Virus record (IMG/VR): IMGVR_UViG_3300029448_000007
Strand: one strand, 5' to 3'
DNA from: an uncultured virus (IMG/VR IMGVR_UViG_3300029448_000007)
Lineage: Duplodnaviria; Heunggongvirae; Uroviricota; Caudoviricetes; Crassvirales
Length of the DNA: 64,000 nt
The notes beneath the pieces were generated by a model. The model was not told the origin of the DNA. It saw nothing but the letters and a program-made list of their open reading frames with translations, and did not search any database. The first letter of the stretch is position 1, and each line of letters starts with the position of its first letter. The translations under genes were made by a program, and so were the position numbers. Shown here piece after piece: positions 19,536 through 64,000 of the stretch.

Positions 19536-19555
19536 TCCCTGTAAATATATATATT

Positions 19556-19867: not shown

Positions 19868-19877
19868 AACTAAACTA

Positions 19878-20585: not shown

Positions 20586-20611
20586 GATTAAAGAGTAAAC
20601 TTAAATAAACA

Positions 20612-41142: not shown

Positions 41143-41831
41143 CACGAGGTTATGTATCCGTATATGAGATTATAGAGAGAGTATTCACATCTCCTCTTGC
41201 TAAAGAAATTGATCTATCTACAATTGTAAGATTGACAGCAGATGGATTGCTTCTTATTGGCGCTCCTACTTTGCAAGAAGATAAAGAGTTTGAAGTTGAA
41301 ATCATTCAATATCGAGCTAAGCTTCCTTGTGAAATCAAAAGAATTAAAACTGTTCGTAAGAATGGTAAAGCTCTTAGAATGTCTGCTAACTCATTTAAGA
41401 ATCTCATTGATCACAACAATAGAGATTACTTTGCAAGTAATGAAAAGACGTACTCTATCAATGGGGAGTATATTCATACAAACTTTGAGAACGACACTAT
41501 TTATATCTCGGCTACTGTTATGCCTATAGATGACAATGGGTATCCTGTCATTCCAAACGATATTAAAATCAAAGAGTTTTTGTACTACCATATCTTAGCT
41601 CGTATTGCTGAGAATATGATGTTAGCTGGTACAATGGATATGGGTAGACTTGGTTACTTGCAGCAGCAAAGAGCTTTCTACGCAGGAGCAGCAACAAACG
41701 CTGCTATCATTCCATCTGCTGATGAGATGGAGACTATCAAAAACATGATGGTTCGTTTAATTAAAGAACCATTAGCACAGTCCAAATTCTACGACAGTGT
41801 GGGACATCAAGAAAAAAGATATCCTAACTAA
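41139..41831 (+). CDS. Tail tubular/ring protein
   Basis: YRAKLPC, YIHTNFE, DDNGYPVIP; synteny. Confidence 0.8.
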   Translation: MTRGYVSVYEIIERVFTSPLAKEIDLSTIVRLTADGLLLIGAPTLQEDKEFEVEIIQYRAKLPCEIKRIKTVRKNGKALRMSANSFKNLIDHNNRDYFASNEKTYSINGEYIHTNFENDTIYISATVMPIDDNGYPVIPNDIKIKEFLYYHILARIAENMMLAGTMDMGRLGYLQQQRAFYAGAATNAAIIPSADEMETIKNMMVRLIKEPLAQSKFYDSVGHQEKRYPN

Positions 41832-45869: not shown

Positions 45870-47267
45870 ATGGCGAAATATAGAAAGTATGAACCCTCTA
45901 GAAACTATATGTCTGGTGGAGGAATTGGCTCAGCAGCAGGTGCTATTTTAGGAAGTATTATTCCTGGCGTAGGTACCGCAATTGGTGGTAGTGTAGGTGG
46001 TATGCTTGGTAATATCATAAGTCCTAACAAACAAGAAATTCAACAGCCACCAAGACCTATTGAACCAACAATGAGATTTGAGATGGGTGGTATGCTAACA
46101 CCTATTGAAGCTGGTGGTAGTCATAGTGAAAACGGACTAGGTGGTGTACCCATTGGAAACAATGCTTCTGTAGAGCAAGGAGAAACAATGACAGAAGATT
46201 TTGTTTACTCTGACAAACTCAAAATCAATAAGACTCTTGCTAAAGAGTTTTCTCTTCCTAAGTCAACGATAGGTAAAACATTTGCTCAAGCATCTAAGTC
46301 ACTTACTATTGACCAAGAAGATGTTATCTCACAACGAGGTAATGAAAGAACATTGAATCGTATTGCAGAAGCTCAAGAAGCTTACAAGCAATCCTTTGGA
46401 AATAAGTATTATCAGAACGCTGCACAGCAAAATAATGAATTACCCGTTGCGCAATATGGTTTAGATATGCGACAACTTAATATGCCTTCACAACCTGTTT
46501 TCAATCCTTTAGATCCTATGGGTTTTGATAGAACAGCAAACCTAAATTTAAATCTGCAAGTTCCAAATTTGACAGGTACTGAAAATATTCAAACTCCCGA
46601 ACAATCTGCAGTAACTCCAGAGGTAGGATCAGATGTAGCATCAGATACCTCTTTGAGTACAGCTAGTTTTAGTCCTTTGAGATATGCGCCTCTTGGTGCT
46701 GATGTATACTCATTGGCTACAGCAGAAAGACCAGAACCAATGGATGCTTCAAGATATCAACAGTTTGGTACATTCACTGAAAACCTTGTTGACAGATCAC
46801 AAATGAGAAAAGGTGTTATGGATACAGCGTCTACAACAGCAAATTATTTGAGAGAAGCTTCTGGTGGTAATGCTTCTTTGTTCAATGCTATGATGCAAAG
46901 TGGTAGCACAGGAACTCAAAGAACTATGGGTGAGCTTTCAATGCAAGCTGACATGCAAGATGCTCAAGAAAAAGCAAGAGTTGAGGGTCTAAAAAATAGG
47001 CAGCAAGCAATGAATACTCAGATTCAACAACAAATTGATATTCAGAATCAGCAAGATCTAGCTGCTTATAATAATATGATTCAAGATAGTGTTGTTAATC
47101 TTGCACAAAATGTTGGTAACATTGGTACAGAACAGACTCGTATTAGTCAAGTAAATCAATTGTTTGGTTATGATGTTCACGGACAGTATAAGCAAGCTAA
47201 AAAAGATGGAGCTACTGATAAGTCTTTTCTTGAATACGCCAAAGGATTACTAGGAAATTTAGTTTAA
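45870..47267 (+). CDS. Ejected cargo protein 1
   Basis: Gly-rich TM-like N-terminus, GGSHSENGLGGVPIG, VEQGET, YSDKL, Gln-rich. Confidence 0.8.
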   Translation: MAKYRKYEPSRNYMSGGGIGSAAGAILGSIIPGVGTAIGGSVGGMLGNIISPNKQEIQQPPRPIEPTMRFEMGGMLTPIEAGGSHSENGLGGVPIGNNASVEQGETMTEDFVYSDKLKINKTLAKEFSLPKSTIGKTFAQASKSLTIDQEDVISQRGNERTLNRIAEAQEAYKQSFGNKYYQNAAQQNNELPVAQYGLDMRQLNMPSQPVFNPLDPMGFDRTANLNLNLQVPNLTGTENIQTPEQSAVTPEVGSDVASDTSLSTASFSPLRYAPLGADVYSLATAERPEPMDASRYQQFGTFTENLVDRSQMRKGVMDTASTTANYLREASGGNASLFNAMMQSGSTGTQRTMGELSMQADMQDAQEKARVEGLKNRQQAMNTQIQQQIDIQNQQDLAAYNNMIQDSVVNLAQNVGNIGTEQTRISQVNQLFGYDVHGQYKQAKKDGATDKSFLEYAKGLLGNLV

Positions 47268-47271: not shown

Positions 47272-50094
47272 ATGGCTGTAGTTAATAGATTTTCACAGAG
47301 GCGGAATTACGCTACGTTTAATCCTATGTCTATGCAGGAGCTTATGGTAGTTCCTCAGTATAGACAGCAACAACACGATTATGCAGAAGCGTTAGCCGAA
47401 GCTCAAAAGACAGAAGGTACTGTTTTATCTCCAGATAAAGAAAAGTTTGCACAAGGCGCTAATGAGATAAATAAAGGTATTACAACTTTAGTAGATGACC
47501 TTACTGAAAAAGGTTTACAGTCTAATACTCTTTCTAATGTCCGCAGTCTTAAAAAGAAAAGAGAAGATTTCTTAGATCCTACTACTGGTTTTGGAGGAAG
47601 AGCTCTTGCTAACTATGCACTTTATCAACAAGGTGTTAAGGATATGGAAGAGATGCGTAAGACAGGTGATTATCTAGAAAGAGATCTTACTAACTCTATG
47701 ATACTATCTCTTAATAGATATGAAGGTGTTGATGCTGGTGATACTTTTGACATGTATAATCCATCTCGATATGTAGATATGGGAAAAAAGACTCTTGAGA
47801 TTTTAGATAAAGTTCCCATTCAAGAAATAGAAACTGCTTTAGGATTGCAAGAAATTGGATTTGATCCTCAAACAGGAAATAAAATTTATCAGCATGGTTC
47901 TACAGTAATTAAAGAGCGTTCTAAAGAACATCAAATGTTGGTTGCTCAACAGTTCTTAAATAACGATCCTGAAGTTCAAGCTTATCTAAACGACCAAGCA
48001 ACATTTGCTCAAGAACTCCATTCAACTATTGAAGAAGAGTCTGGAAGTATTATTTATGGGGATAAATATTTTAACCCTTCTACATTTAAAGATCAGTTTA
48101 TTCAAGGTAAGATTTTGAATATTGCTACAATGGGTGCTGAAGCTACAGATGTTCGAAATGTTTCACAAGATTTAGATTATAAGTTTGTCAAAGCTTCAGA
48201 AGCTTATGCTAGAGCTTGGAGAGAAGCTCATATGCCAGATTCTAAGTCTACAACAACTGGTGGTATGGATGAAAATAAAAGCTTAGGTGATGTTAACTAC
48301 CTTGATGATCTTGCACAAAATCCAAAATATACATTAGTAGGTAAAGATCAAAGTGAAGAATTTACTACTACTAAAAAAGGAAAGTATCCTTCAGGTCTAT
48401 CTAGAAAACAATTTTTAGAATATCAAAAACAAATAGGTGAAAAGCCATATACAGAATATAGTGGTTTAAACACTGGTAGATTTGCATATGAAAGATATTG
48501 GTTTGAAGACCATTTTCCAAATCTTTCAGACCCTGGTTATGAAGTAGGTGACCAAACAGAAACGGAAAAATTAGTTGTTAGAAATCAAGGTGCTGAAACT
48601 TTACAAGATTTTAGAAATATATGGAAAAGAAAAACAAAAGATACTGAATACGAAAATTGGCCTGAACAAGCTGTAGATAAGTTATATGAACATATGACTA
48701 GTAGAGATGGTCTTTTACTTGATAGTGAAGATGGATTAGGAACAGCGCGTCCTGTAAGAGAAGCTTTAGGTAAACCTAGTACTGAGTTTATGGCTTTTGG
48801 ATTTGGTTCAGAAGGTGATATTACTACAGAATCTGTTACAAGAGCAATAGATAATACTGCAGAAGCTGTTACAAAAGGAGTTTCTTCAATAGGAGGTACT
48901 AGTGTAGGAGGATTGGTAAGTGGTGCAATATTACGAACCGATTTAACTATTGCTTCTGATTCAGATAAAAGTATGTTCAAATATCATATGAGTGGTAAGG
49001 ATATTCAAAATATCTTAGGTCTTAAAGCTCAAAGAATGAGTGAAGAAGATTTTAATGCTCATACATTAATGAATAATCAAATGGTTAGACAAAACTTTGA
49101 AGCATTTCAAGTAAGTCATCCTAATGTTAGTTTTGAAGATTGGAAAGAATTAGAAGAAACTAGATTGAAAAATAGTGGTCAAGTTGAAACAATATTAGAA
49201 GGTAAGCAAAACATTCCATCAAGTAATACCACTATAAATAATATGTTGGATACTAAATCGCTTAGTGGTTTAACTGGATATGATATTTCAATTGAAAGAT
49301 TCACTGACAGTCGTATGGAAGATATTGCTACTACTGGTGGACAATTTATTGACGCTCTTAAAGATATTGGTGAAATTGAAAGTATTAGTTACCCTTTGAG
49401 AATTCGTGAAGATGGTGATTACACTAAAATTGGAGGTTATCAATTTAATGTAACAAATAAAGACGGTACTATCTTTAGAATAAAAACACAACCTTTGGTA
49501 AAAGAAGAGGCTTCTGTTCTTGTTCCTTTACAAAGATTAGGGCAAGCTTGGAATAACTCAACAGGTGTACAACTTCCTTCAACTGTAGGTCAAGATAATG
49601 TAATACGAAGTGAACAAATGGTTGTTGGAGAAAAAGGTAAGAATGGATGGGTAGGTACAGATGGTGCTTATATGTTGGATATTAATAGATTGATGGAAAC
49701 TGGTTTTATAAATGAAAATATTATTTCAAGAGGTAGTGTTATAGAAGCTGATTATTCTCCTTTTAATACTTATGGTAGAGGAGGAGATTTCCAAAATAGA
49801 GGTATTAAAAAATATTATATTATAGACCCTAACGGTGTAAAGAAACCATTAATTGATCCAACTCTTTATGATCAAACTCTTATGACGGATGATTATAAAA
49901 GACAACAAGTTGAAGCTGGTAACCTTAAACAAGAAGATTTAGTAAACGAAGAAGGTCTTAATGTTTTAAGAAGTTTGATGATGAATAGAAAAGATTTCCA
50001 TCGATATATAGAACAAAAATCAAATCTTGATTTGATTCAACAAACTATATACTCACCAGCTATTGATCAACGTAAAATAAATCCTCAGCAATAA
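47272..50094 (+). CDS. Ejected cargo protein 2
   Basis: 940 aa; NRF...FNPMSMQEL start; synteny. Confidence 0.7.
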   Translation: MAVVNRFSQRRNYATFNPMSMQELMVVPQYRQQQHDYAEALAEAQKTEGTVLSPDKEKFAQGANEINKGITTLVDDLTEKGLQSNTLSNVRSLKKKREDFLDPTTGFGGRALANYALYQQGVKDMEEMRKTGDYLERDLTNSMILSLNRYEGVDAGDTFDMYNPSRYVDMGKKTLEILDKVPIQEIETALGLQEIGFDPQTGNKIYQHGSTVIKERSKEHQMLVAQQFLNNDPEVQAYLNDQATFAQELHSTIEEESGSIIYGDKYFNPSTFKDQFIQGKILNIATMGAEATDVRNVSQDLDYKFVKASEAYARAWREAHMPDSKSTTTGGMDENKSLGDVNYLDDLAQNPKYTLVGKDQSEEFTTTKKGKYPSGLSRKQFLEYQKQIGEKPYTEYSGLNTGRFAYERYWFEDHFPNLSDPGYEVGDQTETEKLVVRNQGAETLQDFRNIWKRKTKDTEYENWPEQAVDKLYEHMTSRDGLLLDSEDGLGTARPVREALGKPSTEFMAFGFGSEGDITTESVTRAIDNTAEAVTKGVSSIGGTSVGGLVSGAILRTDLTIASDSDKSMFKYHMSGKDIQNILGLKAQRMSEEDFNAHTLMNNQMVRQNFEAFQVSHPNVSFEDWKELEETRLKNSGQVETILEGKQNIPSSNTTINNMLDTKSLSGLTGYDISIERFTDSRMEDIATTGGQFIDALKDIGEIESISYPLRIREDGDYTKIGGYQFNVTNKDGTIFRIKTQPLVKEEASVLVPLQRLGQAWNNSTGVQLPSTVGQDNVIRSEQMVVGEKGKNGWVGTDGAYMLDINRLMETGFINENIISRGSVIEADYSPFNTYGRGGDFQNRGIKKYYIIDPNGVKKPLIDPTLYDQTLMTDDYKRQQVEAGNLKQEDLVNEEGLNVLRSLMMNRKDFHRYIEQKSNLDLIQQTIYSPAIDQRKINPQQ

Positions 50095-53000
50095 TGGATA
50101 AGGAAGTTAAGTTTCAAAAAACCAATCTTAAAAAATCAAATCAAAACTTACCCGTTAGTCCTAAAGTTACAGAAGAAAGTTTTATTCATAGTGATCAAGC
50201 TCCTCTTCTTACAAAAGATAGCAAGTATGATGCAAATCTACAAGCTTATAAAATAAGAAGAGAGGGTATTGATAAGACATTAGCTGCTAACCAAACAGGT
50301 TGGGATGAAGCTATGAATGGTATTGGTAGAGGTGTTGCTTCTGGTTTAGCAACAGCTGTTGAAAACTTATCTTATATTCCAAATATCTTTACTCAAGACT
50401 TTGAAGCTAACGCTTTATCTGAAGCAATGAAAGATGTCAAGGAAGATTTGCGAGAGGCTCTTCCTATATATAGAACATCCGATGATCCGTTTTCTTGGGA
50501 TAACGGTGCTGTTGTTTGGGAATCACTTGCTGGTGTATTAGACTCAGGTATTGGTTTTGCAATTCCTGGTGTTGGTATTTCAAAAGGTATTTCACTTGCA
50601 GGTAGAGGTATATCTAGAGCAGGAAGACTTGGAAGACTTGGTGCAAGAGCAGCAGCTCTTAGACAATCTGCTTTAGCAAATCCTGTAATCAAACAACTTT
50701 CAACATCTACAATGGCTGGTGTTATTTCTAATGACTTAGAAGGCACTATGATGGGTGTTGAGATTTATGAAAACAAGGTAAAAGAACTTAAGAAAAAAAG
50801 AAATGATGGTGAGATTGATGCTACAGACGAGCAAATAAAAGAAGCTGCTCATAGACAAGCTGCTAACTTTAAATTACACAATAGAGCTTTTGCAATAACA
50901 GATGCTTTTGCACTTCAAGGTTTAACAAGAGGTCATGGTATTACAAGAAATCTTATTGCTGATCCTAAGAACTTTAAAAATAAACTTACAAAATCTTTAA
51001 CGTCACCTGATTCTCTATTGGCTCAAGGTTTAACAGAAGCAGGAGAAGAAATCTCACAAGGAGTTCTTCAGAAGATGGCTGAGTTTAGAATTGATAAAGA
51101 ATTTGGTTTAGCAAAAGATGATAAGTCTACTATGTCTAGAGCATTGGAGTATGCTTTGGATAGAGAAACTCTTTATGAAGGTATGCTTGGGTTCTTTGGA
51201 GGTGGCTTCCAAAGAGTAGTATCTGAGAGTACAAATAAAGCAGCTGACTTTTTTGAAAATAAAAGGATTGACAAGAAGATTAAAAATCTTCAAAGTCTTA
51301 TAGACAACTCAGATGATGTTGTTGAAAATAAAAAGCTTGAAGCTCGAATAGAAGACTTACAAAAACAAAAAGCTTCTTTTAAAAGACAAGAGTCTTACGA
51401 AAAACAACAGTCTTTGATTGCAGCTCTTCAAGAAGATGTTGATAAAGCTATGGCTCAAGACGTAAAACTTTCTGAAGGAGAAGCGTACTTTAACAAAGAG
51501 ACTGCGGCTCATGAGCAAATGCGTCAGACGTTTAGAGATGTAAGATTTAGAAAGCTTGCCATTACTCACTTTGAGAATGGTACTACTGAAAAGCTTGAAG
51601 AGTCACTTAACAATATTGAAGACTCTGATTTAAGAGCACATTATTTAGGTAAGCTTAAAACTTATGAAAAAGCTTATATAAATAACTCAGGTGCTGCTAT
51701 GGGTGATTTGCTTTTTCACCAATATACAGACATTGATATTCTTCAAGATAAAGTAAATGCCATAAACAACGCTATCTCTGAAGCAGAGAGCGACCCTGTT
51801 ATTCAAGATGAAGAGCTTATTAAGAATCTTCAAGAGAGTAAAACTGCGTTTGAAGAAAAACTCAATACAGCAAGAGACGAGTATAAAAAAGCTAGAAAGA
51901 ACGATAAGCAAACGCTTATTAAGATTCTAGAAAAAAAAGCTCAAGAATATTCTGATGCTCAAACAGTAGAAGAGGTTGAAGATATTCAAAAAGAACATGA
52001 GCAAGATGGTTATGATACTTCAGAAGCTGCAGAAGAAGCTAAGAAAACAGCTAAAGAAAATGAAAATGAAAGTCTTAAAAAAGATTCTGAAGCTAGATCA
52101 TATGCTGAAATGTATCAAGATGATGATTTTGATCCCTATGAAGATTATGATCCGAGCAGTAAAGGTGTTGTTACTCCAGAAACTGTTACCACTCAAGATG
52201 TTGAAAAGGAAAGAGAGGTTGCTTTAGAAAGAGAGAAAGATAATCTTCAAGAGCCTTTTGCTCCTGGCAGTGATCAAACTGTTGGGGAAAAAATCAACGA
52301 AGAGTATGATGCAAAAGCTGAAGAAGCAGTTGATGTACCTCAACCAGAGTTTGTTCCTGACGATGATACTTATATTCCAGTAGAACCTGAAGATGACTAC
52401 GACCCCGAAGCTTATTATAGAGATTCTGAACTTGGTCAAGAAGAGATAGACTCTCTTGAAGAAATCAAAGAAGAGAAAAAGAAAGACGAAGAAAGTGCTC
52501 CTATTACTGATTTAGAAGTAGGTAATGATAAAACTTTTGAATCAGACGGTCAAAGTAGACCTGCAACTGGAGAAAACCAAGAAGATTATATAGACGAGCC
52601 TGGTACTCAAAGAGGCGTTAAGTTAATGGATGCGTTTGACGCTAGACCTGAAGGTAAAAATAAAGATGGGAGTCATATTGTACCAGGTTACTTTAAAAGA
52701 AAGTATGGTGCTTTTTTAAACTGGTTAAGAAACTGGTCTAAAGACACAAGTGTAACATTAGATGATTTTGCAGTTCGACTTGAAGTAGATTTTGATTCAA
52801 ACAGTTACCCTCCTAATGTAGATATTAAAGCTTTAGAGGATAAACTAAATAAGCAAAATCTTTCGGATAAAGAATTTTTAGAAATTGTTTCTAAAGTTTC
52901 TATCAAAGCTGTAGTTGTTAGAAAACAAGGAGGCGATGCTGTTATTGATTCGAGTACGAACTCTGAAGTATTTACATTTTTAAGAATTAAAAGTAATGAT

Positions 53001-55229
53001 ACTGTTTATAACCAAACTCTTCAACAGTTAAGACAAGATGTTGTAAGAGCTAGATTAAATGGTGAAACAAGTGTAACTACAACATTCCAACAACAGTATC
53101 CTTTAAACTTTGATAATCAGCCTACTGTAGATGGCAAAGCTTCTACTAATAGTATCCTTGAGGTTTTCAATATGGACCCTCAACAAGTTAGAGATAACTT
53201 GAGAGTTGGTAACTCTGGAAGAAACAGAAATGGTAGGAAAAAAGTAGATGGTGCTCGTTGGGTTAGCATGGATTCTAAAGAAGACTTTGATATCAGAGCA
53301 AGAGATGCTGGTATCTCAGGTAAGATTGGAATGAAAGTAAGAAACCCAAATGGTTCTTACTCTGTTGCAAAGCTTAACCTTGAGAAGATTTCAGAAAGCG
53401 ATGCAGATTTTATTTTTAGAATATACGAATCTTTGTCTGGTGTAGGCACTAGTATGCAAACACAGGTTCCAGAAAACCTTATGCGTGAGTTCAAACAGAG
53501 AACAGGTCTTAGCTTTGAACCTCAAACAATGTTAGACCTTGTTAAATTCTACATTCACGATGGTCACTATAAGAATGGAGATAAGACAGAATTTAATCCT
53601 AAAACTAAAGTTGTTTTAAACAAAGGTGTCTTGATGTACAACGGCAATAAGTCAGTAGATAATTTTAACGACCCTATCCAAAGACAAGAGTTTATGGATT
53701 TCCTTATGGAAAACAAACGCTATAATATTAAGAAGGGTAAAGAGATGACTACTGAATATGTTGAGTGGTTGCTTAATACAAACAATACATATCCTGGACC
53801 TCCTATTCTTAACACCAACCTTGGGCCTGACATCTTTGACAATGCTGTTTATTGGAAAGATGCGGATGGTAATAGAAAGAAATTCTCAGGTTCTGTTTAC
53901 ATTAAACCTCTAACGGTAAGGCCACAAAAGAAAGTAACAGAAAGCCAAACAAACATCCAGCAACAAGTTAAACAAAAGCTTGATGGGATTGGCACGATGC
54001 AAAAGTCAGATGGTAAGTATGGTGGAACACATACTAGAGTATCTGAACATATTTCACCAAAGAAAGGTGAAGGTGAAGTTTTACCAGCAGCTGTTAAGAG
54101 AGCTGCACAGGTAGGTACAAATCTTGACCAAGTAGCAAGAGATTTCTTTGAGGGTAAACTTAAAGCTTTTGAAGAATATAAAGATGAGAATGGTGTTTTG
54201 TTCTTTAAGCAAGAGAATGTATTTAACACTTTTATAGAACAGCTAAAAGAAACACAAGAGAAAGCTTTAGCAAGGGGAGCTATACTTTACACAACCCCTG
54301 TACACCTTAGAGATGATGAAGCTCTAATTGCTGGTGAACCAGACATGTTACTTATTGAACCAGATGGTTCTATTAACATTGTTGACTTTAAAGCATTTGT
54401 AAGAGGTGCTAGAAGACTTAAAGATGACTCCGATGTTGAAGGTGAAACTATGCTTGAACACTATACTAAGCAACAAAACATGTATAGAATGCTTGGTATC
54501 AACATGGGTCTCAATATGCAGTCAATGGGTCTTTTGGTATTCCAAATTAAATATAGAAATAGTATTACTGTAAATACAGTACTGACTCAAAAAAGAGTTC
54601 CGCTACAACTTCTTGATGATGTCAATGGATATCGTATTAAAAGAAAACCAGATTCTACATTCCCCGCTGCTCAGAATAATAAACTTTCAGAAGCAGAATC
54701 ACTACCGTTTAGAGAACAGCCAATAATTAAAGAAACAATTATTTATAAAAAAGGTGGTAAAGAATATACCTATATCATTAAAGGTACTAAAATCTTTAAC
54801 GATAAGGGTAAAGAGGTATATGCAAAAGCAAGTATAGACAGAGATAAAATATTTGCTAATTTAGCAATTAAGCAAAAAAGAGCTAAAGTAGTTGAGGTTG
54901 AAGGCAATTCATATGTTGTAAACAAAGAAGGTAAGGTTATGTCTGTGGATACAGGTAAGATTATGAATCGAGAAACAAACCCAACTTTGTATAACAGTAT
55001 TATACAAAAAGCTTTTTCTACTAAAAAAGAAAAAACCACAGAAGATGTTGAAAAAGAAAAGAAGCTTACTAAAGAAGTCAACGATCAGTTAGGAGGAAAA
55101 AATAGTATTGAGGAAAGAAGAAAAGCTTTAGCTGAAAGAATAAAGAAAGGTAGAGCTAAGGGTTATACTAAGAAAGACAATATTGAAGAGGATCCAAACA
55201 AGGACTCAACTTGTAAAAAAAATAAATAA
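50094..55229 (+). CDS. Giant virion protein with membrane-like N-terminal region and PD-(D/E)XK nuclease-like domain
   Basis: EAGEEISQG, GFFGGG; IAGEPDMLLI...IVDFK...YTKQQNMY. Confidence 0.8.
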   Translation: MDKEVKFQKTNLKKSNQNLPVSPKVTEESFIHSDQAPLLTKDSKYDANLQAYKIRREGIDKTLAANQTGWDEAMNGIGRGVASGLATAVENLSYIPNIFTQDFEANALSEAMKDVKEDLREALPIYRTSDDPFSWDNGAVVWESLAGVLDSGIGFAIPGVGISKGISLAGRGISRAGRLGRLGARAAALRQSALANPVIKQLSTSTMAGVISNDLEGTMMGVEIYENKVKELKKKRNDGEIDATDEQIKEAAHRQAANFKLHNRAFAITDAFALQGLTRGHGITRNLIADPKNFKNKLTKSLTSPDSLLAQGLTEAGEEISQGVLQKMAEFRIDKEFGLAKDDKSTMSRALEYALDRETLYEGMLGFFGGGFQRVVSESTNKAADFFENKRIDKKIKNLQSLIDNSDDVVENKKLEARIEDLQKQKASFKRQESYEKQQSLIAALQEDVDKAMAQDVKLSEGEAYFNKETAAHEQMRQTFRDVRFRKLAITHFENGTTEKLEESLNNIEDSDLRAHYLGKLKTYEKAYINNSGAAMGDLLFHQYTDIDILQDKVNAINNAISEAESDPVIQDEELIKNLQESKTAFEEKLNTARDEYKKARKNDKQTLIKILEKKAQEYSDAQTVEEVEDIQKEHEQDGYDTSEAAEEAKKTAKENENESLKKDSEARSYAEMYQDDDFDPYEDYDPSSKGVVTPETVTTQDVEKEREVALEREKDNLQEPFAPGSDQTVGEKINEEYDAKAEEAVDVPQPEFVPDDDTYIPVEPEDDYDPEAYYRDSELGQEEIDSLEEIKEEKKKDEESAPITDLEVGNDKTFESDGQSRPATGENQEDYIDEPGTQRGVKLMDAFDARPEGKNKDGSHIVPGYFKRKYGAFLNWLRNWSKDTSVTLDDFAVRLEVDFDSNSYPPNVDIKALEDKLNKQNLSDKEFLEIVSKVSIKAVVVRKQGGDAVIDSSTNSEVFTFLRIKSNDTVYNQTLQQLRQDVVRARLNGETSVTTTFQQQYPLNFDNQPTVDGKASTNSILEVFNMDPQQVRDNLRVGNSGRNRNGRKKVDGARWVSMDSKEDFDIRARDAGISGKIGMKVRNPNGSYSVAKLNLEKISESDADFIFRIYESLSGVGTSMQTQVPENLMREFKQRTGLSFEPQTMLDLVKFYIHDGHYKNGDKTEFNPKTKVVLNKGVLMYNGNKSVDNFNDPIQRQEFMDFLMENKRYNIKKGKEMTTEYVEWLLNTNNTYPGPPILNTNLGPDIFDNAVYWKDADGNRKKFSGSVYIKPLTVRPQKKVTESQTNIQQQVKQKLDGIGTMQKSDGKYGGTHTRVSEHISPKKGEGEVLPAAVKRAAQVGTNLDQVARDFFEGKLKAFEEYKDENGVLFFKQENVFNTFIEQLKETQEKALARGAILYTTPVHLRDDEALIAGEPDMLLIEPDGSINIVDFKAFVRGARRLKDDSDVEGETMLEHYTKQQNMYRMLGINMGLNMQSMGLLVFQIKYRNSITVNTVLTQKRVPLQLLDDVNGYRIKRKPDSTFPAAQNNKLSEAESLPFREQPIIKETIIYKKGGKEYTYIIKGTKIFNDKGKEVYAKASIDRDKIFANLAIKQKRAKVVEVEGNSYVVNKEGKVMSVDTGKIMNRETNPTLYNSIIQKAFSTKKEKTTEDVEKEKKLTKEVNDQLGGKNSIEERRKALAERIKKGRAKGYTKKDNIEEDPNKDSTCKKNK

Positions 55230-58200
55230 TGGCGTGTAAGTTTATAGCAAACAATGGGATTGAATCCAAACTTCATGAACAACTCATTAAAGAATTTGGT
55301 GGTGACCCATCTTCTCTTTCTAAGATAGGTGCTTTTAAAGAAATACCTTTCAATAATAGAGCAGATGACTTGTACGCTTTTGTACAAGGTTCTGGATTTA
55401 GAGCTTGGTTTGGTGACTTCACTAAAGAAAACTTACCCAACACAGATGAGAATGGTGAGCCTGTTTTACAAAACGATGGTGAATACTATTTTGAGAGAGA
55501 AGATGGTGCTAGAGAATATCTTACAGGTGAGGATTCTGTGTTCTCAATTCAAGACAAACATGATGTCTTTGAACTTCTTAGATTTGGTTTTATAGAATCT
55601 CTTAAGAGTGATGACAGAGGAACTCTTATATCTTTTATTTCAGAGTCTTCAAGCTTAGAAGAAGCTCTTGAGGGAGGTCTTACTAGTGTTATGGAAGACA
55701 CTGTTGAAAGAATTGTTAATGATGAAAATAAAGTTCTGACTGATTCGCAGATGGAACTTTTAGAGAAACTGTACGATAATCAAGAGCAAACAATTCCTAT
55801 GTTTTCAGATATGATGAAAAGGTTTTATTCAAACCTTGGCATCACATTCAAAGAAGACAACAATATTGATGAAGATGAGAATGGTAACGACAAAGAAGGT
55901 GGTACAAGTATAGACTCTGACTTTAGTCCTTCTGTTGAATCAGACCCTATTAAGACAGCATCTCGTGCTGTCAAAGTTTATCTAAGCCATATAGCAAAGT
56001 CAGACTCTAAAAGTAAGTTTGGTGAGGCAACGTATGAGTCTTTTAATGGTATTCAAAAGACTCTTATTCGATTGTTTTCTGATGCAGAAGGAAAGTCTTT
56101 GTCTCAGTTTGACATGACCTTCGGAGAACTCTTTGACTTATATATCGATAGACTTGGTAAACTAGAGAATGAATTTTCTTGGGCAACTACTATTATACAA
56201 GACCTAAATAAGATGAAAGAAAATGGAGATATCAACTCCATTAAGCAATTCATGGTTGGTCTTACAAGTCAATATTATAACTATACAATTGGTACGTTTG
56301 ACACAAATGGTAATGTAAAATACATTTCTACATCTGCTTCTGAAGGAAATACACAGAGGATTATTTCTGCTTGGAATACAGATTTTATTTCTAACAAAGG
56401 TTCTTTACAGCAACTTTCTCCAGATAAAGTTAAAAAGGAAAGCGACACTCAAGAGGGTGTTGTTTCTACTGTCGTTGATCACATTTTTAATAACCTTTCT
56501 TCTTTTGGTATAAACATCAAAAGACAAGCTATTGAAGATGTTATTACCGATGAGAACTCTACATACTTAACAGGAAATACTGAAGAGAAAGCTTTTAAGA
56601 TTCTTAATTTTTTTAATGACTTTGTTGAAGACATCCAAGAGAAGAAAGAGAAAGGAGACTTCTTTGATAATCTTGGTAGAGAAAAAAGTATAATCAAAGA
56701 AAATGAGTTCATTAGAGAGATTGCAAAGAAGCAGGTTCTCTATATGGAGGATAATATAAATGAATCTGTTCAAAGACCTAGTGGTCAATCTTATTCTTTT
56801 TCAAAACCAACATTTATAAAAGACCAGCTTGATCGTATTCTTAATGCAAAAAACTCACAATCTTATATCAAGAATCTTCAGAATAATAAGTACTACGCTG
56901 TTTCTAAATGGTTTGAAGCATTAGCTGATAAGACCAAAAAAGCAGCTGTTAATATGATGTCTCACTTTAAGAAAGACAGGGCGAGTGACGCTGGTAACGA
57001 TAATAAAGATATCAAGCTTGCTGATGAGTTGTCTATGAACATCACTATGATGTTGAGGGCAGTTACAGCAGAAGGTAGAAAGCTAAAGCAAAGACCTGTA
57101 TTTAGAACACTTACTGCTGGTGATAAGTCAAGAGCTTTTCATATTGAAGGAGACTTTCCAATTACACAGACTGAGTTTTTTAATGACAACAAGCTTGGTG
57201 ATAACGTAATAACAAGAGCTGTCGACTATGTAAATGCTGAATTTACAAGAGCTTATGATGTTGCTAAACAAATTAAAGCTGTTGAAAAAGGTAAGGCAGA
57301 AGGTATCATTTACTATAATACTGGACCAAAGAACGGTCTTAAGATATATTCTTTACCTGAACTATCACATCAAGTATATAACGCTGTTGTGTTTGACAAG
57401 TCAGATTCTATTGCTGATAAAATGAATCAAGAAACTAAAGACTTGATTCTAGACCTCCACAATAAAATCAAAGAGGTAAATAAGATAGGACTGTACAGTG
57501 AGAATGGTATGCCCATGTTTGCAGATCTTGTTAAAGATAACGAGATAAGTGATGACATAAGAGCATTTGTTGAAAACATTGTTACAAAAAAAGTATTAGC
57601 GGGTGTTGCAGAAATGAGTTCTTTCTTTCATCCTAATGTCAGAGGAACTAAAAATGAAAAACCTCGTATTGTTGTTGACAAACAAATTCTTAATGAATAT
57701 AAAGCAAGAAACAACAATAACGAAGATGCGGCTATTAATAATATTCTAGCAGATTATTTTGTAAATCAGTTCTTTGCAAATATCGAGTATACGAAAATGT
57801 TTACTGGAGACCCTGCTTATTATAAGAATGAGGATGACTTTAGAAAAAGAGTACAAGCTACTTACATTGATGGTGATGTAGGAATCTTTGGTGACTTCAA
57901 AGGAAAGACAGATAATAAATTTAAAGTTGCTGTTACCAAAAAGATTTTTAGAGCAACAAAAGAAGAAATCTTAGAAGAGTGGAAAGAATACATTGGTGAT
58001 AAAATAGAAAACTACAAAAGTAATAACATCGCTGATGCTCAAGCTTGGATCACACTTGACAGATGGACACAAATTGAAAAGTCATTAGGTAGGTGGACAA
58101 AGACACATGATAAAATTTTTAAGAAAGTCAATAAAGGTCAAGATCTAAATAAAGAAGAACTGGATTTTGTTCTAAAGAATCATCCACCACAGTCAATGAA

Positions 58201-61200
58201 GGGTGTTTACTTTAACATTGATGAAACTGGAAGACCAACATACTTAAAGTATTCACAAGCCGTACTTATACCTCAGCTTATCAAAGGCTCTCCTACATTA
58301 GAAAAGATGGCTGTAAAAATGAAAGCTGGGGGTATTGATGAACTTGTAACACTTGACGGTATTAAGGTTGGTGCGCCATCAAATATGTTTGATGCCAACT
58401 TAGATATTGAGAATAGTAAGTTCTTGACACTTGAACTTGATGCGACAAAGTGGAGACTGCAACAAGATCTTCCAACAAAAGGTGTTAAGCAACAAGATGT
58501 TGGTTCTCAGATAATGAAGAACATTCTTGCAAACATCAAACTTGATGGTGACTATACATTAGATAGAGAAACAGTAAAAGGTTCTAAAATTAAAGATAAA
58601 ATTTTTGAAATTATTAAAGAGCTTTCAGATGAGGGTACTTTAAGTTTTAAAAAAGAAATCTTTCAAACTGACGAAAGTGGTAATATTATCGAAGGTAAAA
58701 TTGATAGAACAAAAGTTACAAAGCTTATTCTAGATAATCTTAGAGATGTTGATGAAAACATAGAGTACGCTCTTAATAGAGGTACTAGCTTTGATGTTCT
58801 ACCGAACATTAGAACTCAAGTTCAAAATACTCTTTTTTCACAGATTGCAAAAGCGATGAAACCAAAAACATTGGGTGCTGGTTTTATCCAAGTAGCTCCT
58901 TATGGTTTTGAAAATTTTGAGAATAGGTCTGATGTTATCTGGCTCAAAGAAGGAGAAAAAGTTTTAGATCCACCCAGAGAAGCCAATAACTTTAAAGGTG
59001 AATTCTTAGTATCAGGGTCTTTATTGAATAAGCTTATTCAAAAGAAAAAACCAGGTGAAACGTATAAGACTTATATTACTGATAAGAAAGGTAACATAGA
59101 AAGAAATGAAGATGGTTCTATAAATACAAGTCGTTTGTTTGGACCAGAAGGTTTGTTTAATAGTGTAAGTGACCTTAGTGCTATTGGATATCGTATTCCT
59201 AACCAAGGACTTTCATCTAATGATGCTTTGACTATTGCTGGTATTCTACCAGATATTGCTGGTGACATCATTGTACCTTACGGAGAAATTACAACTAAAA
59301 CGGGTTCTGACTTTGACATCGATAAGATGTATGTCATGTTTAAAAACATAGAACCTGATTTTTCAAAAGGTAAGAAAAAACAAACTAGAGCTCTTGTTTC
59401 CAATTTAATGAAAGCTGCAAAATTAGAAACTCCTAATAATACGTTGATTTCTTTGTATGAGTCTATTCTAACAAATCGTGAGCATACAGTTCCTCAAACA
59501 CTCAATCCTCTAGACTCAAGTGAGCTTCAAGACTTTATTGAAAAAGAGCTTGGTCTTAAAAAGATATTTGACCTTTTCGATCCTGTTGAGGATTTGAAAC
59601 TAAAACATAATATTAAAGGTGGTAAAGCAAATGTTGGTATTACAGCAAACCACATTGTAAATATTGTATATGCTCAATTAGCACAGTCTGAAATACTAGC
59701 TGACTTGGGTGTTGGACACTATAATGAGACAACAAACAGTACAGCTTTATACGAACAGTATGTAGAAGGTTCTGATAATGAGTATATTACTAAAACCCTT
59801 AATGACTTTCTTAACGCATTTGTTGATATCAACAAAGACCCATACATTGTAAATGGTAACTACAATACTAAGACTACTGGTATTGCATTTATGTTAATTA
59901 GAGCTGGAGCTTCAAAAGAATGGGTAACATCTTTTCTAAAGCAACCTGCTATTGACCGCCTTCTAAAAGGTATGGAGATGGAAGATGCAAGTGTTACAGG
60001 TTTTGTTCCCAATGATAAAAAAGCTTTACAAAGACTTATTAAAAGCTATGAGACTCTCTCTGGTAGTAAAATGGATTTTGATGAAGCTACAGAATATGTT
60101 AGAAGAAAGTTTACAGAAAAGAGTCTTAAGAAGAATGTGGGTAAGTCTGATACAGACCCTGAGTTTCAGCTAGCTACTTTGGTTATGTTCAAGAAGTATA
60201 TGCAGCTTGCTCAAGGACTTTCTAATTTTAACTCAGCGATGAGATCTGATGTATTGGGTGCGGGTAAAGATTATTCCGAACTTATAGCTATCAGAAATAC
60301 TGTTAGAAAAGTTTTGTATGAAAAGAAAGTAAGTGGTCTAGATGAAGTATTTGCAAATACTCAGGTAGGTACATTCTATGAAAACTCTGTTCGTATAGCA
60401 GAGGACGTTGTAGAACAACTATTTAATATTAACAAAGCGGATAACATTGTAGATGAGATTGGCAATGATATTACAGGTAATTATATCACCAATGCAAAAG
60501 ATATAACCGATATTCATAGATCTCTTTACACATATTTTTATTTCAGCGGAGAGATTGCAGAGATGACTGTTCAAGAACAAAAAGATTTGTTTACAGGTAA
60601 AGACAACTTAGGTAAGAGAATAAAACTAGCAAGACGAGGTGGAGAAAATATAGAAGGTGCTTACTTGCTTAACAATCTAAAAATTGAAGCTGCTAAGTTT
60701 AATGGTCAGGTATATAATTTTATTTCATTGCCTAGTTCTACAAAGGCGGATGCTGAATTTAAAGATGATGTTCGTAAAGCTTGGCTTGAACTTCTAAGAT
60801 CAAATGATGAAAACTTAAGACAGATTGGAGAAGACCTTGTTAAACATGGTTTCTTATCTACAGGTTTTAAGAAAGGTCTTGGTTCAACATTTGATTACAT
60901 TCCAAATGAATGGTTCTTTAGAAGCAACTTCGCTAAGAACGTACAATCTAAGTTTGATGATTTAGATAACCAATCTGCTTTTCAAGAAGCTGTTGACTTT
61001 GTATATTTAGATAACGAGGATAATTCTAAGTTTGTACCAAACATAAAAACCTTAGGAGATCGAGAAAATCTTTTTGGAAGCTCAAATGCTTTTATAGTTC
61101 CTAAGCCAGAAAAAACAGCAAGGAGATTTGTTAAAGATGATAAAGATTCTATCTATAAATTTATAGGTAAAGGTGCTGAAGGTGGACATATTTATCTTTT

Positions 61201-61906
61201 AAGTAAAAAAATTAAAGTTTCTTTAGACAATAAGTATAGTTACTATAGTATAAGAAAAGATAGTAATGATAAAACTTTGTTACCTAAGTCTCAAAAGGTA
61301 ATAGAAGATTTTACAGAACTAAGAAGAAAAGTTAATGGTCTAGTAAATAGAAGTGCTCAAGAAGTAAGAGAATCTATTTTTGAAGATATCAATAGTATCT
61401 CTGATAGAGATTTAGAATATTCTAATGAACGCCTTCAGCTTACTGAAGATATATCTCAACCAACACAACAAGCTGCTGAGGTTAAAAGTATTCCTGAAAA
61501 TATTAAAGATGTTGTAAATAAAGTTTATCCTGGATGGATAAACAAAACTAATAATCAAATAAGTCTCGCTGCCGAGTTTAAAACTGCTGAACGTGTTACA
61601 GAAACATTTGGGGAAAATACTATTGAAAAAAGAATTAATGATGGTAAGACAGCTTTAGATTTTTTAAATCAAATAAAGAAAGGTAAAAATCCTTTTACAG
61701 AAAAAACAACAATTGAAGAACAAATTCCAAATTTGTTATATAATTATCTAAGTGGAGAATTAGCTAAAGATGGTATTCTTGAAAAAGATATGTTTAATAA
61801 CATACTTCAAACAACACAGTCAAAAGTCGGAGAACAATTATCTCTTGACCTCTTACCTGAAGAGAGTGATGAGGAAGCGAAAGGAAGAAGTAGATGTAAA
61901 GGTTAA
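55229..61906 (+). CDS. Virion DNA-dependent RNA polymerase (crAss-type)
   Basis: GYRIPNQG and TGSDFDIDKMY catalytic motif, GDPAYYK...KR, ADAQAW, VDINKDP. Confidence 0.95.
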   Translation: MACKFIANNGIESKLHEQLIKEFGGDPSSLSKIGAFKEIPFNNRADDLYAFVQGSGFRAWFGDFTKENLPNTDENGEPVLQNDGEYYFEREDGAREYLTGEDSVFSIQDKHDVFELLRFGFIESLKSDDRGTLISFISESSSLEEALEGGLTSVMEDTVERIVNDENKVLTDSQMELLEKLYDNQEQTIPMFSDMMKRFYSNLGITFKEDNNIDEDENGNDKEGGTSIDSDFSPSVESDPIKTASRAVKVYLSHIAKSDSKSKFGEATYESFNGIQKTLIRLFSDAEGKSLSQFDMTFGELFDLYIDRLGKLENEFSWATTIIQDLNKMKENGDINSIKQFMVGLTSQYYNYTIGTFDTNGNVKYISTSASEGNTQRIISAWNTDFISNKGSLQQLSPDKVKKESDTQEGVVSTVVDHIFNNLSSFGINIKRQAIEDVITDENSTYLTGNTEEKAFKILNFFNDFVEDIQEKKEKGDFFDNLGREKSIIKENEFIREIAKKQVLYMEDNINESVQRPSGQSYSFSKPTFIKDQLDRILNAKNSQSYIKNLQNNKYYAVSKWFEALADKTKKAAVNMMSHFKKDRASDAGNDNKDIKLADELSMNITMMLRAVTAEGRKLKQRPVFRTLTAGDKSRAFHIEGDFPITQTEFFNDNKLGDNVITRAVDYVNAEFTRAYDVAKQIKAVEKGKAEGIIYYNTGPKNGLKIYSLPELSHQVYNAVVFDKSDSIADKMNQETKDLILDLHNKIKEVNKIGLYSENGMPMFADLVKDNEISDDIRAFVENIVTKKVLAGVAEMSSFFHPNVRGTKNEKPRIVVDKQILNEYKARNNNNEDAAINNILADYFVNQFFANIEYTKMFTGDPAYYKNEDDFRKRVQATYIDGDVGIFGDFKGKTDNKFKVAVTKKIFRATKEEILEEWKEYIGDKIENYKSNNIADAQAWITLDRWTQIEKSLGRWTKTHDKIFKKVNKGQDLNKEELDFVLKNHPPQSMKGVYFNIDETGRPTYLKYSQAVLIPQLIKGSPTLEKMAVKMKAGGIDELVTLDGIKVGAPSNMFDANLDIENSKFLTLELDATKWRLQQDLPTKGVKQQDVGSQIMKNILANIKLDGDYTLDRETVKGSKIKDKIFEIIKELSDEGTLSFKKEIFQTDESGNIIEGKIDRTKVTKLILDNLRDVDENIEYALNRGTSFDVLPNIRTQVQNTLFSQIAKAMKPKTLGAGFIQVAPYGFENFENRSDVIWLKEGEKVLDPPREANNFKGEFLVSGSLLNKLIQKKKPGETYKTYITDKKGNIERNEDGSINTSRLFGPEGLFNSVSDLSAIGYRIPNQGLSSNDALTIAGILPDIAGDIIVPYGEITTKTGSDFDIDKMYVMFKNIEPDFSKGKKKQTRALVSNLMKAAKLETPNNTLISLYESILTNREHTVPQTLNPLDSSELQDFIEKELGLKKIFDLFDPVEDLKLKHNIKGGKANVGITANHIVNIVYAQLAQSEILADLGVGHYNETTNSTALYEQYVEGSDNEYITKTLNDFLNAFVDINKDPYIVNGNYNTKTTGIAFMLIRAGASKEWVTSFLKQPAIDRLLKGMEMEDASVTGFVPNDKKALQRLIKSYETLSGSKMDFDEATEYVRRKFTEKSLKKNVGKSDTDPEFQLATLVMFKKYMQLAQGLSNFNSAMRSDVLGAGKDYSELIAIRNTVRKVLYEKKVSGLDEVFANTQVGTFYENSVRIAEDVVEQLFNINKADNIVDEIGNDITGNYITNAKDITDIHRSLYTYFYFSGEIAEMTVQEQKDLFTGKDNLGKRIKLARRGGENIEGAYLLNNLKIEAAKFNGQVYNFISLPSSTKADAEFKDDVRKAWLELLRSNDENLRQIGEDLVKHGFLSTGFKKGLGSTFDYIPNEWFFRSNFAKNVQSKFDDLDNQSAFQEAVDFVYLDNEDNSKFVPNIKTLGDRENLFGSSNAFIVPKPEKTARRFVKDDKDSIYKFIGKGAEGGHIYLLSKKIKVSLDNKYSYYSIRKDSNDKTLLPKSQKVIEDFTELRRKVNGLVNRSAQEVRESIFEDINSISDRDLEYSNERLQLTEDISQPTQQAAEVKSIPENIKDVVNKVYPGWINKTNNQISLAAEFKTAERVTETFGENTIEKRINDGKTALDFLNQIKKGKNPFTEKTTIEEQIPNLLYNYLSGELAKDGILEKDMFNNILQTTQSKVGEQLSLDLLPEESDEEAKGRSRCKG

Positions 61907-61924
61907 AATTAGTAAATTTACAAA

Positions 61925-64000
61925 ATGATAGCATGTCCTAATATAAATACACAAGAGTGGAAATCCTTAGAGGGAGCTCTTGGTGAAAATAGAGCATACC
62001 TTGCTTACTTTAGAGCTAACAAAGGTGCTAAGGAACTACGCATTCCTACTGTTGAAGAAGGTAAGAACCTCATCAAAGGTAATCAAACTGTAGAGCAGTC
62101 TATTCTAAAAGAGTTGCAGCACTATGGTATGATAGCCAAACGTCAGTATAAAAGCAAAATCAAAAAGTTTAGAGGTAAAGTTCTGTTTAGTATTCCAAAG
62201 ATTCGTACTGTCTCTGATATAAAAGAATACATTGGTCTCGAATCTAACGCTGTACTATTTAAAAGAAATGAGGGTGCTATCAATAACCTCAGAGATTTTA
62301 ATATGTCTTGGTTTACAATGGAGCGTACAGCAAATGCTGATTTCCTTGCTGTAGATGAAGATATTTATAAAGGTAGAAGAACTATTGATGTAAAGCCATT
62401 CGAGTCTAACAATAAAGAAGTTGATGATGGTGATTACATGAACTACCTTCAGTGGTGGCATACATTATCACCAGATCAAAAAGCTTCAGAGAATGCACTT
62501 CGTGTTCAAGATGGTTTGGATGAACTTCCTATTGAAGAAGGTTTCCAAAAAGAATCTTTCATGAATACAAAAGAGTCTATAAATAAGACTCAAAAAAAGA
62601 TTGAAACGATGATGGCTGTTATGAAAGCTAGAGGTATCAATGTTGAAGTTCGGTTAGATGAAAAGTTACCTCAAAAAGGTAAGTTTACAAGAGAGAAGAA
62701 TAAAAATATTATTACTCTTAATCCAAATAAGATTTCTCCAGACACAGCTATTCATGAATTTGCACACATCTTTATTGAAGAACTTGGTGGTTTAAACAAC
62801 CAAAGGATTAGAGCTGCTGTAAATGTTCTTAGAACAAGCAGACTATACGAACAAGTTAGAGAGTTGTATCCAGAGCTAACCGCTGAAGAGCTTGACAAAG
62901 AAGTTCTTGCTACAGCTATAGGATTAGAAGGTGCAGAAATCTTTGCAGATAATAAAGAGAAAGCTGGTTTTATCAATCGATTTAAAGATTGGTTTGTCAA
63001 TTTTGTTTCACAAAAACTTGGTCTTTCAAATACAGCTGTTACTCAGCTTACTCGTGAGCTTATTGGACAGTCTACCTATGAGACAAGAGCTTCTGATCTT
63101 GCTTATGAAAAAAGAAACTTTTCAAATGAGATAAATAATATCAATGATGTTATCAAAGTTATAATCGATGACCTTAAAGTTAGAACAAGGGAGATAAAAA
63201 AAATGGAAGGTTCTCCTGAAAAGATTGAAGAGATGGTTGACAATCTTGATGGTATCAGAGAAAACATTCAACGCTTCTATAAGAATTATGATGCTAGCGT
63301 CGCATTGTCTTATATCGAAGATGCTTATCAACAACTTAGCCAAGCGGCTGCTGACTTACAAGGTGATGTTTCTCTTTCAAGAATTCATATTATTCAAACA
63401 TACCTATCGTCTTATGAAATGCTACCTAGCATACGAAAGGTACTCAACAGACAAAATTTTACTCCCGAGACAAAACAAAAAATTAACGATAATATTGATG
63501 CTAGCCTTAGACTTATAGAAGAAACAAAGTCTAAGATTACTGATAAAAGAAAAGAAGCTGTTGTCGAACAGTTTTCAAAAACTTCTTTGTATGGTATAGG
63601 TGTTCTCAAAGAGCGTTTTGAAATAGAAGCTAACCAAAAGTATGCTTCTGAAACCAAGAGTGTTCGTAAAAAGCTTGTAGAAGATGAGGTTAATAGAAGA
63701 CTTGCTGAATCTGAAGACGAAGCTCTTGAGATAAACAGAGGATACTTCTCAAGCATAGTAGACTTTACTAATGCTGATATCTCATCAGTATCTGCTTGGG
63801 TAAATGACCCTGCTAATACAACATCTGCTACACTTTCTATGACTACTAGATTGTTAGATAGTACAGATGCTAAGACAAGATCGTTCTTCTTAAAAGAAAG
63901 AGAGCGTATACATACAGCAGTGCATAAGTTTTATAAAACCGTTGGTAAAAAATATGGTAAAGACCCATTTAAGAATCTTATAAGTACAGACTCTAATGGT
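61925..64000 (+). CDS. Giant virion protein with zincin-like metallopeptidase motif (partial)
   Basis: Hand-translated, open 692 codons to window edge; MIACPN..., AIHEFAH and downstream KEVLA. Confidence 0.85.
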   Translation, partial: MIACPNINTQEWKSLEGALGENRAYLAYFRANKGAKELRIPTVEEGKNLIKGNQTVEQSILKELQHYGMIAKRQYKSKIKKFRGKVLFSIPKIRTVSDIKEYIGLESNAVLFKRNEGAINNLRDFNMSWFTMERTANADFLAVDEDIYKGRRTIDVKPFESNNKEVDDGDYMNYLQWWHTLSPDQKASENALRVQDGLDELPIEEGFQKESFMNTKESINKTQKKIETMMAVMKARGINVEVRLDEKLPQKGKFTREKNKNIITLNPNKISPDTAIHEFAHIFIEELGGLNNQRIRAAVNVLRTSRLYEQVRELYPELTAEELDKEVLATAIGLEGAEIFADNKEKAGFINRFKDWFVNFVSQKLGLSNTAVTQLTRELIGQSTYETRASDLAYEKRNFSNEINNINDVIKVIIDDLKVRTREIKKMEGSPEKIEEMVDNLDGIRENIQRFYKNYDASVALSYIEDAYQQLSQAAADLQGDVSLSRIHIIQTYLSSYEMLPSIRKVLNRQNFTPETKQKINDNIDASLRLIEETKSKITDKRKEAVVEQFSKTSLYGIGVLKERFEIEANQKYASETKSVRKKLVEDEVNRRLAESEDEALEINRGYFSSIVDFTNADISSVSAWVNDPANTTSATLSMTTRLLDSTDAKTRSFFLKERERIHTAVHKFYKTVGKKYGKDPFKNLISTDSNG

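Follow-up and report, generated by a model that had tools for sequence, protein, structure and literature searches.

Terminal cysteines of the crassvirus virion RNA polymerase module and a possible disulfide-linked ejection thread

The crassviruses, more abundant in the human gut than any other viruses, raise a problem of packing and injection: how is some 0.6-0.7 MDa of polymerase-associated protein stored in a particle and delivered to the host? We approach this question through a 64,000-nucleotide stretch of DNA, referred to as the window, from an uncultured virus of the Crassvirales (IMG/VR record IMGVR_UViG_3300029448_000007), in which the virion RNA polymerase (protein B) is encoded between two further giant proteins (A and C) whose cysteines, like its own, lie at the ends that face one another. 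Comparison of genomes shows that the pair of cysteines at a junction is near-invariant where the two genes are separate and that both are absent where the genes are fused. We propose, with a probability of about 0.68, that inter-protein disulfides running from C-terminus to N-terminus tether A, B and C into one thread. The new element is the proposed two-link, order-wide chain through the polymerase that covaries with gene fusion. A disulfide-stapled thread, if real, would provide a model, testable on gels, for stoichiometry, ejection order and polymerase release, and would account for the module being split or fused in different lineages.

Facing cysteines in the window

The module occupies the end of the window, where the following features were located.

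41831..45814, + strand: muzzle protein, 1327 amino acids (aa), 10 cysteines (Pfam crAss_MUZ, E=1.7e-164, and crAss_MUZ_C)
45870..47267, + strand: cargo protein 1, 465 aa, 0 cysteines (Pfam crAss_CARG1, E=6.9e-17)
47272..50094, + strand: second cargo-position protein, 940 aa, 0 cysteines, named by position only
50094..55229, + strand: protein A, 1711 aa, sole cysteine at residue 1707 (...DSTCKKNK)
55212..55214, + strand: TGT codon of A Cys1707, fifth residue from the C-terminus (codon read directly)
55229..61906, + strand: protein B, virion two-barrel RNA polymerase, 2225 aa (phmmer match to PDB 6VR4, phi14:2 gp66, E=1.3e-121)
55235..55237, + strand: TGT codon of B Cys3 (codon read directly)
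59309..59323, + strand: catalytic DFDID motif of B, residues 1361-1365 (found by regular expression; D1361, D1363 and D1365 are invariant in alignment A1, described below)
61895..61897, + strand: TGT codon of B Cys2223, third residue from the C-terminus (codon read directly)
61925..64000, + strand: protein C, 692 of 1530 aa inside the window, cut by the window end, sole cysteine at residue 4 (MIAC...)
61934..61936, + strand: TGT codon of C Cys4 (codon read directly)

Protein B has the DFDxD motif of a two-barrel RNA polymerase and stands behind the muzzle and cargo genes with the giant proteins A and C on either side, in the gene order of phage phi14:2; the stop codon of A and the ATG of B share one base. 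Protein A is the positional counterpart of phi14:2 gp67 and crAss001 gp47, and protein C, which matches a hidden Markov model (HMM) of its family over residues 1-1526, is the counterpart of phi14:2 gp65 and crAss001 gp49. The resemblance of B to proteins of cultured phages is distant (25.5% identity to phi14:2 g066 over 66% of B by tblastn). Mass spectrometry has placed the module proteins in the virions of phi14:2 and crAss001 (record notes; PMC10172136, cited, like the other papers below, from the accessible part of its text), and by homology A, B and C of the window are probably packed in the virion and injected as well.

The cysteines of protein B are limited to residues 3 (MAC...) and 2223 (...RSRCKG). 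Full-length protein C was recovered as homologue P0129 (1530 aa), which is 100% identical over the 692 aa seen in the window; its only cysteine is Cys4 and a C-terminal cysteine is absent, so that the chain here has three members. Together A, B and C comprise 5466 aa holding 4 cysteines. The remaining 24 open reading frames (ORFs) of the window contain 66 cysteines in 10,670 aa (0.62%), a rate at which 33.8 would be expected in the three proteins (Poisson P(<=4)=1.3e-10), and the probability that four cysteines fall one each into the four five-residue segments at the facing ends is 1.7e-11. The initial annotation, made by manual scan, had described one cysteine in A, two in B and one in the visible part of C, all terminal, and none in the two upstream cargo proteins. 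Codons and translations agree with it exactly, and the 465-aa and 940-aa ORFs both count 0. The muzzle protein at the start of the cargo block is, by comparison, a neighbour with a normal cysteine content.

Conservation of the terminal cysteines and their loss on gene fusion

Homologues of B number 478 in all, of which the best 120 (25-88% identity) were examined; a cysteine was scored as N-terminal within the first 10 residues and as C-terminal within the last 12. Genomic context was obtained from an alignment-based scan of viral contigs, which yielded 77 loci where a single-protein scan had yielded none. With the window and six phage records these make 84 genomes in 64 clusters (70% B-core identity), over which the tallies of protein ends are deduplicated. 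ORFs were called from the first ATG, TAG was read as Gln where this restored the frame, and the architecture of each locus was assigned with HMMs for B and C. Invariant columns refer to a 26-sequence alignment for B (A1) and an alignment for A (A2).

The terminal-cysteine rule applies throughout the order and also to Fipvunavirus. Among the best 120 of the 478 homologues of B, cysteines are present at both ends in 109, at the N-terminus only in 7 and at the C-terminus only in 4, with none lacking both; internal cysteines are absent in 104 of these 120, and only 19 occur in 283,031 residues. C3 and C2223 are invariant columns of A1, as are the catalytic Asp residues. The sole cysteine lies at the C-terminus in all eight homologues of A, C1707 being an invariant column of A2, while homologues of C have the N-terminal cysteine in 30 of 32 cases (the two misses begin about 20 HMM positions late) and a C-terminal one in a single case of 32, a protein that ends early in the HMM. 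Over the genome clusters the ends were tallied as follows.

Unfused B, N-terminal cysteine: 40/40
Unfused B, C-terminal cysteine: 43/44 (the miss is locus L066)
A, C-terminal cysteine: 37/39 (in the misses, L016 and L039, the cysteine lies 32 and 18 residues from the end)
A, N-terminal cysteine: 1/36 (the one is an extra member in L043)
C, N-terminal cysteine: 56/57 (missing in L027, where starting at a later ATG yields MVC)
C, C-terminal cysteine: 0/53

Internal cysteines have a frequency of 0.005-0.016% in unfused A, B and C, against 1.35% in control ORFs of the same loci. A cysteine occurs in the first 10 residues of 11/135 control ORFs (8%) and in the last 12 residues of 19/135 (14%), as compared with 95-100% in the chain proteins. 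The N-terminal cysteine is at position 3 in 62/97 proteins; the C-terminal one is 1-4 residues from the end in 84/95, commonly followed by Lys, and the terminal cysteines are kept although their distance from the end shifts by 1-9 residues. The initial annotation had named conservation among Crassvirales orthologues as one point on which its idea could fall, and the terminal cysteines prove near-invariant where the genes are separate. The 11 proteins among the best 120 that lack one terminal cysteine were sorted with HMMs into four B+C fusions, one A+B fusion, four truncated gene calls, and homologues P0019 and P0020.

The cultured relatives follow the same rule. In phi14:2, a phage of Cellulophaga baltica, gp67 has a cysteine only at 1797 of 1797 residues, gp66 at 3 and 2179 (of 2180), and gp65 only at 3; the three proteins add up to 5398 aa. 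In crAss001, a phage of Bacteroides intestinalis, where the three sum to about 694 kDa (262.5, 276.9 and 154.5 kDa, PMC10172136), the cysteines are residue 2339 of 2341 in gp47, residues 5, 1334 and 2404 of 2412 in gp50, and residue 5 in gp49; here gp47 is encoded on the strand opposite to gp50 and gp49, indicating that the cysteine pattern is not a by-product of the gene junction. The Fipvunavirus Fpv1 has a fused A+B protein (4401 aa) whose sole cysteine is residue 4400, and its C has Cys 3, while crAss002 has an A with its sole cysteine at 2019 of 2020 and a fused B+C. In one locus (L012), C sits 6 kb downstream of B and still begins MSC, with three cysteine-rich ORFs of 781, 500 and 440 aa (16891-22075) inserted between the two genes.

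Gene fusions and splits provide a natural experiment on the pairing of these ends. Where A and B are fused, the fusion protein has an N-terminal cysteine in 0/14 cases and a C-terminal one in 15/15 (deduplicated), and none of 17 such fusions has a cysteine within 150 residues of the inferred A/B junction. Split genomes, on the other hand, have the junction cysteine pair in 40/41 cases, the miss being crAss002 with its annotated start. A C-terminal cysteine is absent from five B+C fusions; four of these, P0014, P0032, P0034 and P0049 (3380-3525 aa), have a single cysteine each, at the N-terminus. Locus L061 (2-16858) encodes A+B+C as a single ORF that exceeds 5618 aa, is open at its 5' end and has zero cysteines. 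On a FastTree phylogeny built from 62 rows and 1654 columns of the B core (two clusters with a short core left out, and several long branches making some placements unsure) the architecture changes eight times, at least six of which are forced by the starred branches, so that a minimum of 6-7 changes between the fused and the split state is taken as secure. Fifty-eight rows have both traits, four unfused rows that are open at the 5' end being set aside, and among these the cysteine pair changes opposite to fusion in six of seven independent pairs and is unchanged in one (sign test p=0.031). This covariation fixes the pairing as the C-terminus of A with the N-terminus of B, and the C-terminus of B with the N-terminus of C.

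Flanked by A on one side and a B+C fusion on the other, the extra member in L043 (2757-6602) is a 1281-aa protein with a PD-(D/E)XK nuclease domain. With Cys 3 and a further cysteine as its last residue, it has one at both ends and is an additional link in the chain.

Several start codons and reading frames at these loci merit comment. An in-frame later start in crAss002 (L006:15100-27837) gives MSC at residue 33 (context YMSC), and one in L027 (15141-19460) gives MVC at residue 11; the terminal-cysteine rule may therefore assist start-codon correction. TAG-recoded lineages were found at L057-L060, L063-L065, L067, L068, L070-L075, L077-L079 and L081-L083, and also in cr4_1 (L003). In these the polymerase ORF measures, for example, 145-700 aa under code 11 as against about 4400-4700 aa with TAG read as an amino acid, and the cysteine pair between AB and C is retained, with more internal cysteines.

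A disulfide-linked thread and its alternatives

The comparative data lead us to propose a model for delivery of the module. A, B and C would be packed in the capsid and then injected into the host. Cysteine would have been purged from all three, leaving only coupling thiols on short flexible tails, at the C-terminus of A, both ends of B and the N-terminus of C. Two disulfides, one between A Cys1707 and B Cys3 and the other between B Cys2223 and C Cys4, would then join the three proteins at 1:1:1 stoichiometry into a covalent, nearly linear thread of about 5,500 residues. Like one fused polypeptide, this thread could pass through the tail, and the proteins may be ejected in gene order. The near-total loss of other cysteines would also prevent mispairing. 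Oxidation would probably take place in the particle, after the ends are held together, and reduction in the host cytoplasm would free the polymerase. The pairing of the ends is shown by the comparison, whereas the disulfide nature of the bond, its formation in the particle and its reduction in the cytoplasm are inferred.

The closest parallel is the cyanopodophage A4 (Anabaena phage A-4L), in which cryo-electron microscopy (cryo-EM) of the pre-ejectosome inside the capsid revealed a disulfide between gp27 Cys1715 and gp26 Cys5, the C-terminal helix of gp27 lying in a cleft of gp26 (PNAS 2025, PMC12002296). Reading of the genes showed that Cys1715 is the sole cysteine of gp27 (1717 aa) and Cys5 that of gp26 (1114 aa), its adjacent-gene partner; A, B and C of the window display the same arrangement of sole cysteines at facing ends, which makes a disulfide plausible for them. 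The known A4 case, in the accessible text, consists of a single bond that joins two proteins in a T7-like core stack, a structural detail of one phage, whereas in crassviruses two serial links would run through the polymerase. No match was found between A4 gp26 or gp27 and the crassvirus proteins by phmmer or HMM at E<=0.01, and the resemblance is therefore one of mechanism and not of family. Further plausibility comes from the crAss001 virion itself: its gp57, tail hubs and rings R1-R2 hold disulfides between subunits (PMC10172136). Because the protein was kept in dithiothreitol (DTT) or tris(2-carboxyethyl)phosphine (TCEP), the cysteine-bearing ends are flexible when free.

The Schitoviridae offer a second comparison. 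Their ejected virion polymerases (N4 gp50, DEV gp71) resemble those of crassviruses in being strongly suppressed in cysteine, which has been attributed to passage through the periplasm (PMC11445570), and a 2026 paper on N4 notes a possible parallel of the N4 N-terminal domain, core and C-terminal domain to the three crassvirus proteins, adding that structures are still needed for the ejection proteins of crassviruses (PMC13434306). The Schitoviridae enzyme is, however, a single polypeptide with no terminal cysteine and, by that paper's account, another polymerase fold, while the crassvirus module is split and, on the reading we favour, re-joined by disulfides. The window, with three polypeptides and terminal cysteines, departs from the pattern of one polypeptide with no cysteine, and only the all-fused L061 fits it. 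Fused polyprotein forms of the crassvirus module were mentioned in the 2020 gp66 preprint, with cleavage proposed; the forms found here are A+B, B+C and A+B+C, and the loss of junction cysteines on fusion is not stated in the accessible part of that preprint. Neither cysteine nor disulfide is mentioned anywhere in its text, nor is cysteine in that of the crAss001 structure paper (Bayfield 2023, PMC10172136), and a literature search whose coverage did not extend to the Nature version of the gp66 paper found no paper stating the terminal-cysteine rule for crassviruses.

Which alternatives could produce the same pattern? The initial annotation had claimed linkage from C-terminus to N-terminus by disulfide or metal; the pairing of ends it assumed is strongly supported by the comparison, and of the two chemistries a disulfide is the more plausible one. 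Joining of the facing cysteines through a metal ion or other thiol chemistry, such as a shared zinc site of the zinc-hook type, would require no oxidant and would suit phages of the anoxic gut, and the pairing evidence tells which ends belong together, not the type of bond. We nevertheless regard it as improbable, since each end contributes a single cysteine, Lys, Asn, Ser, Ala and Pro predominate among the neighbours of the cysteines, and, among the residues listed, His, Cys and Asp are absent after the cysteine (before it His and Asp occur seven times each). The A4 proteins, with the same signature, form a direct disulfide (PMC12002296). Slightly better, though still unlikely, is the view that there is no bond at all, the purge of cysteine being an adaptation to the oxidising periplasm and the terminal cysteines a signal for redox sensing, processing or packaging. 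Cysteine suppression is documented, and explained in this way, for the ejected polymerases of the Schitoviridae and their partners (PMC11445570). Those proteins, however, are essentially without cysteine, termini included, as a purge alone predicts, and a signal at a protein end is not expected to vanish in pairs on fusion.

Joint loss on fusion also bears on whether the terminal cysteines bond elsewhere, to another copy of the protein itself or to an anchoring capsid, portal or tail protein. The structural proteins of crAss001 do use disulfides (PMC10172136) and those of the window have normal cysteine numbers, yet such partners would leave unexplained both the disappearance of the junction cysteines in 17/17 A+B, four B+C and one A+B+C fusion and the restriction of cysteines to the inner ends of the chain (N-terminus of A 1/36, the one being the extra member; C-terminus of C 0/53), and we consider this the least probable of the biochemical alternatives. 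Chance, a gene-calling artefact or a nucleotide signal at the junctions has next to no standing. Starts were taken at the first ATG and many homologues are metagenome gene calls, which might have favoured an artefact, but the probabilities are of the order of 1e-10 to 1e-11 in the window alone, the control ORFs reach only 8% and 14%, the pattern persists for genes that are non-adjacent or on opposite strands, and the cysteine is retained while its distance from the end varies. This explanation is refuted. Two more specific candidates were rejected: a remnant of a polyprotein cleavage site, by the 17/17 A+B fusions without a cysteine near the junction, and a junction signal at the nucleotide level, by the non-adjacent and opposite-strand genes.

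A number of observations weigh against the disulfide thread. Some concern the chemistry: a Pfam search of the window revealed no thiol oxidase. The cytoplasm in which assembly takes place is reducing and the habitat of gut crassviruses is anoxic, which poses a problem of oxidant and timing. Others are exceptions to the rule. P0020 has a full B core and is a true exception, its C-terminal cysteine being absent, and the second cysteine of P0019 lies 62 residues from the end, so that with L016 and L039 there are cysteines displaced by 18-62 residues. The first half of the split B in L066 lacks a terminal cysteine. The fusion P0066 (A+B) retains one cysteine about 25 residues from the junction, the TAG-recoded gut lineages have 2-9 internal cysteines in A+B, and the N-terminal cysteines of crAss002 and L027, scored as misses, require a later ATG as start. 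Finally, the regions beside the junctions are poorly conserved, and BLASTP of the N-terminal 200 aa of B against those of C revealed no similarity that would indicate a common docking module (E=0.9). In L080, for example, nothing aligns to the C-terminal 65 aa of crAss001 gp47 or to the N-terminal 192 aa of gp50; with flanks this divergent, alignment of fused and split forms gave no residue-by-residue placement of the cysteines.

The locus L066 (7553-19547) is unusual in itself. The polymerase is split after DFDID into ORFs of 1943 and 871 aa, with a 1161-aa ORF between them that has no Pfam match; the first half contains a second cysteine in the context ENCKGG, 288 residues before its end.

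Additional domains and the structural block

Homologues of B with extra domains include P0002-P0006, P0011, P0018, P0093-P0095 and P0100. They measure 2700-3400 aa, mostly have no internal cysteine (P0100 has one), and carry helicase/AAA_30, AlkB-like 2OG oxygenase, NADAR/DUF1768, ART-PolyVal and AAA_33 domains, which seem to be effector domains injected along with the polymerase. A broader and more tentative idea, which we rather doubt at present, is that a single terminal cysteine is a general modular coupling code for protein injection by phages: proteins that have a thiol at one end or both, with none in between, would be joined into a reducible chain, threaded through the tail in order and set free by the reducing cytoplasm of the host. 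Crassviruses would then add or swap injected enzymes, junctions would switch freely between peptide bond and disulfide, and cyanophage A4, which is unrelated, would have come to the same solution. The nuclease member in L043 and the cysteine-free helicase, AlkB, NADAR and ART domains in homologues of B fit this idea. If the thread is real, its terminal cysteines would also give a simple sequence rule by which cargo for injection, new effector enzymes among it, could be recognised in the genomes of uncultured phages.

Other parts of the module were also inspected. The best-conserved part of A is N-terminal (residues ~60-380), Gly-rich and amphipathic, and many of its G, A and F columns are invariant in A2; a scan at Kyte-Doolittle >=1.6 over 19 residues found no hydrophobic membrane segment in A of the window. 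The 2020 gp66 preprint describes phi14:2 gp65 as carrying a zincin-like protease domain, for which P0129 gave no Pfam match. Cargo protein 1 has a glycine zipper at its N-terminus (Pfam Gly-zipper_Omp), while Pfam and PHROG searches with the 940-aa cargo-position protein gave no match.

The window contains the structural block of a crass-like phage. Upstream of the muzzle gene lie the following head genes.

14586-16928: P22-like portal (Pfam)
17987-19495: Crassvirus major capsid protein (Pfam Crass_capsid, E=5e-144)

Further Pfam matches in the window are tail ring proteins 3/4, 2 and 1 and the auxiliary capsid protein, and a PhoH-like ATPase gene (9843-10511, Pfam E=8.5e-52) is located upstream of the structural block. 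Two proteins of the window stand out for their cysteines: a 187-aa ORF (35695-36258) with 5 cysteines and the cysteine-rich tail KSNCNKDCNC, and the ring 2 protein (40008-40691) with 6 cysteines (2.6%). Both may correspond to the disulfide-stapled parts of the crAss001 tail.

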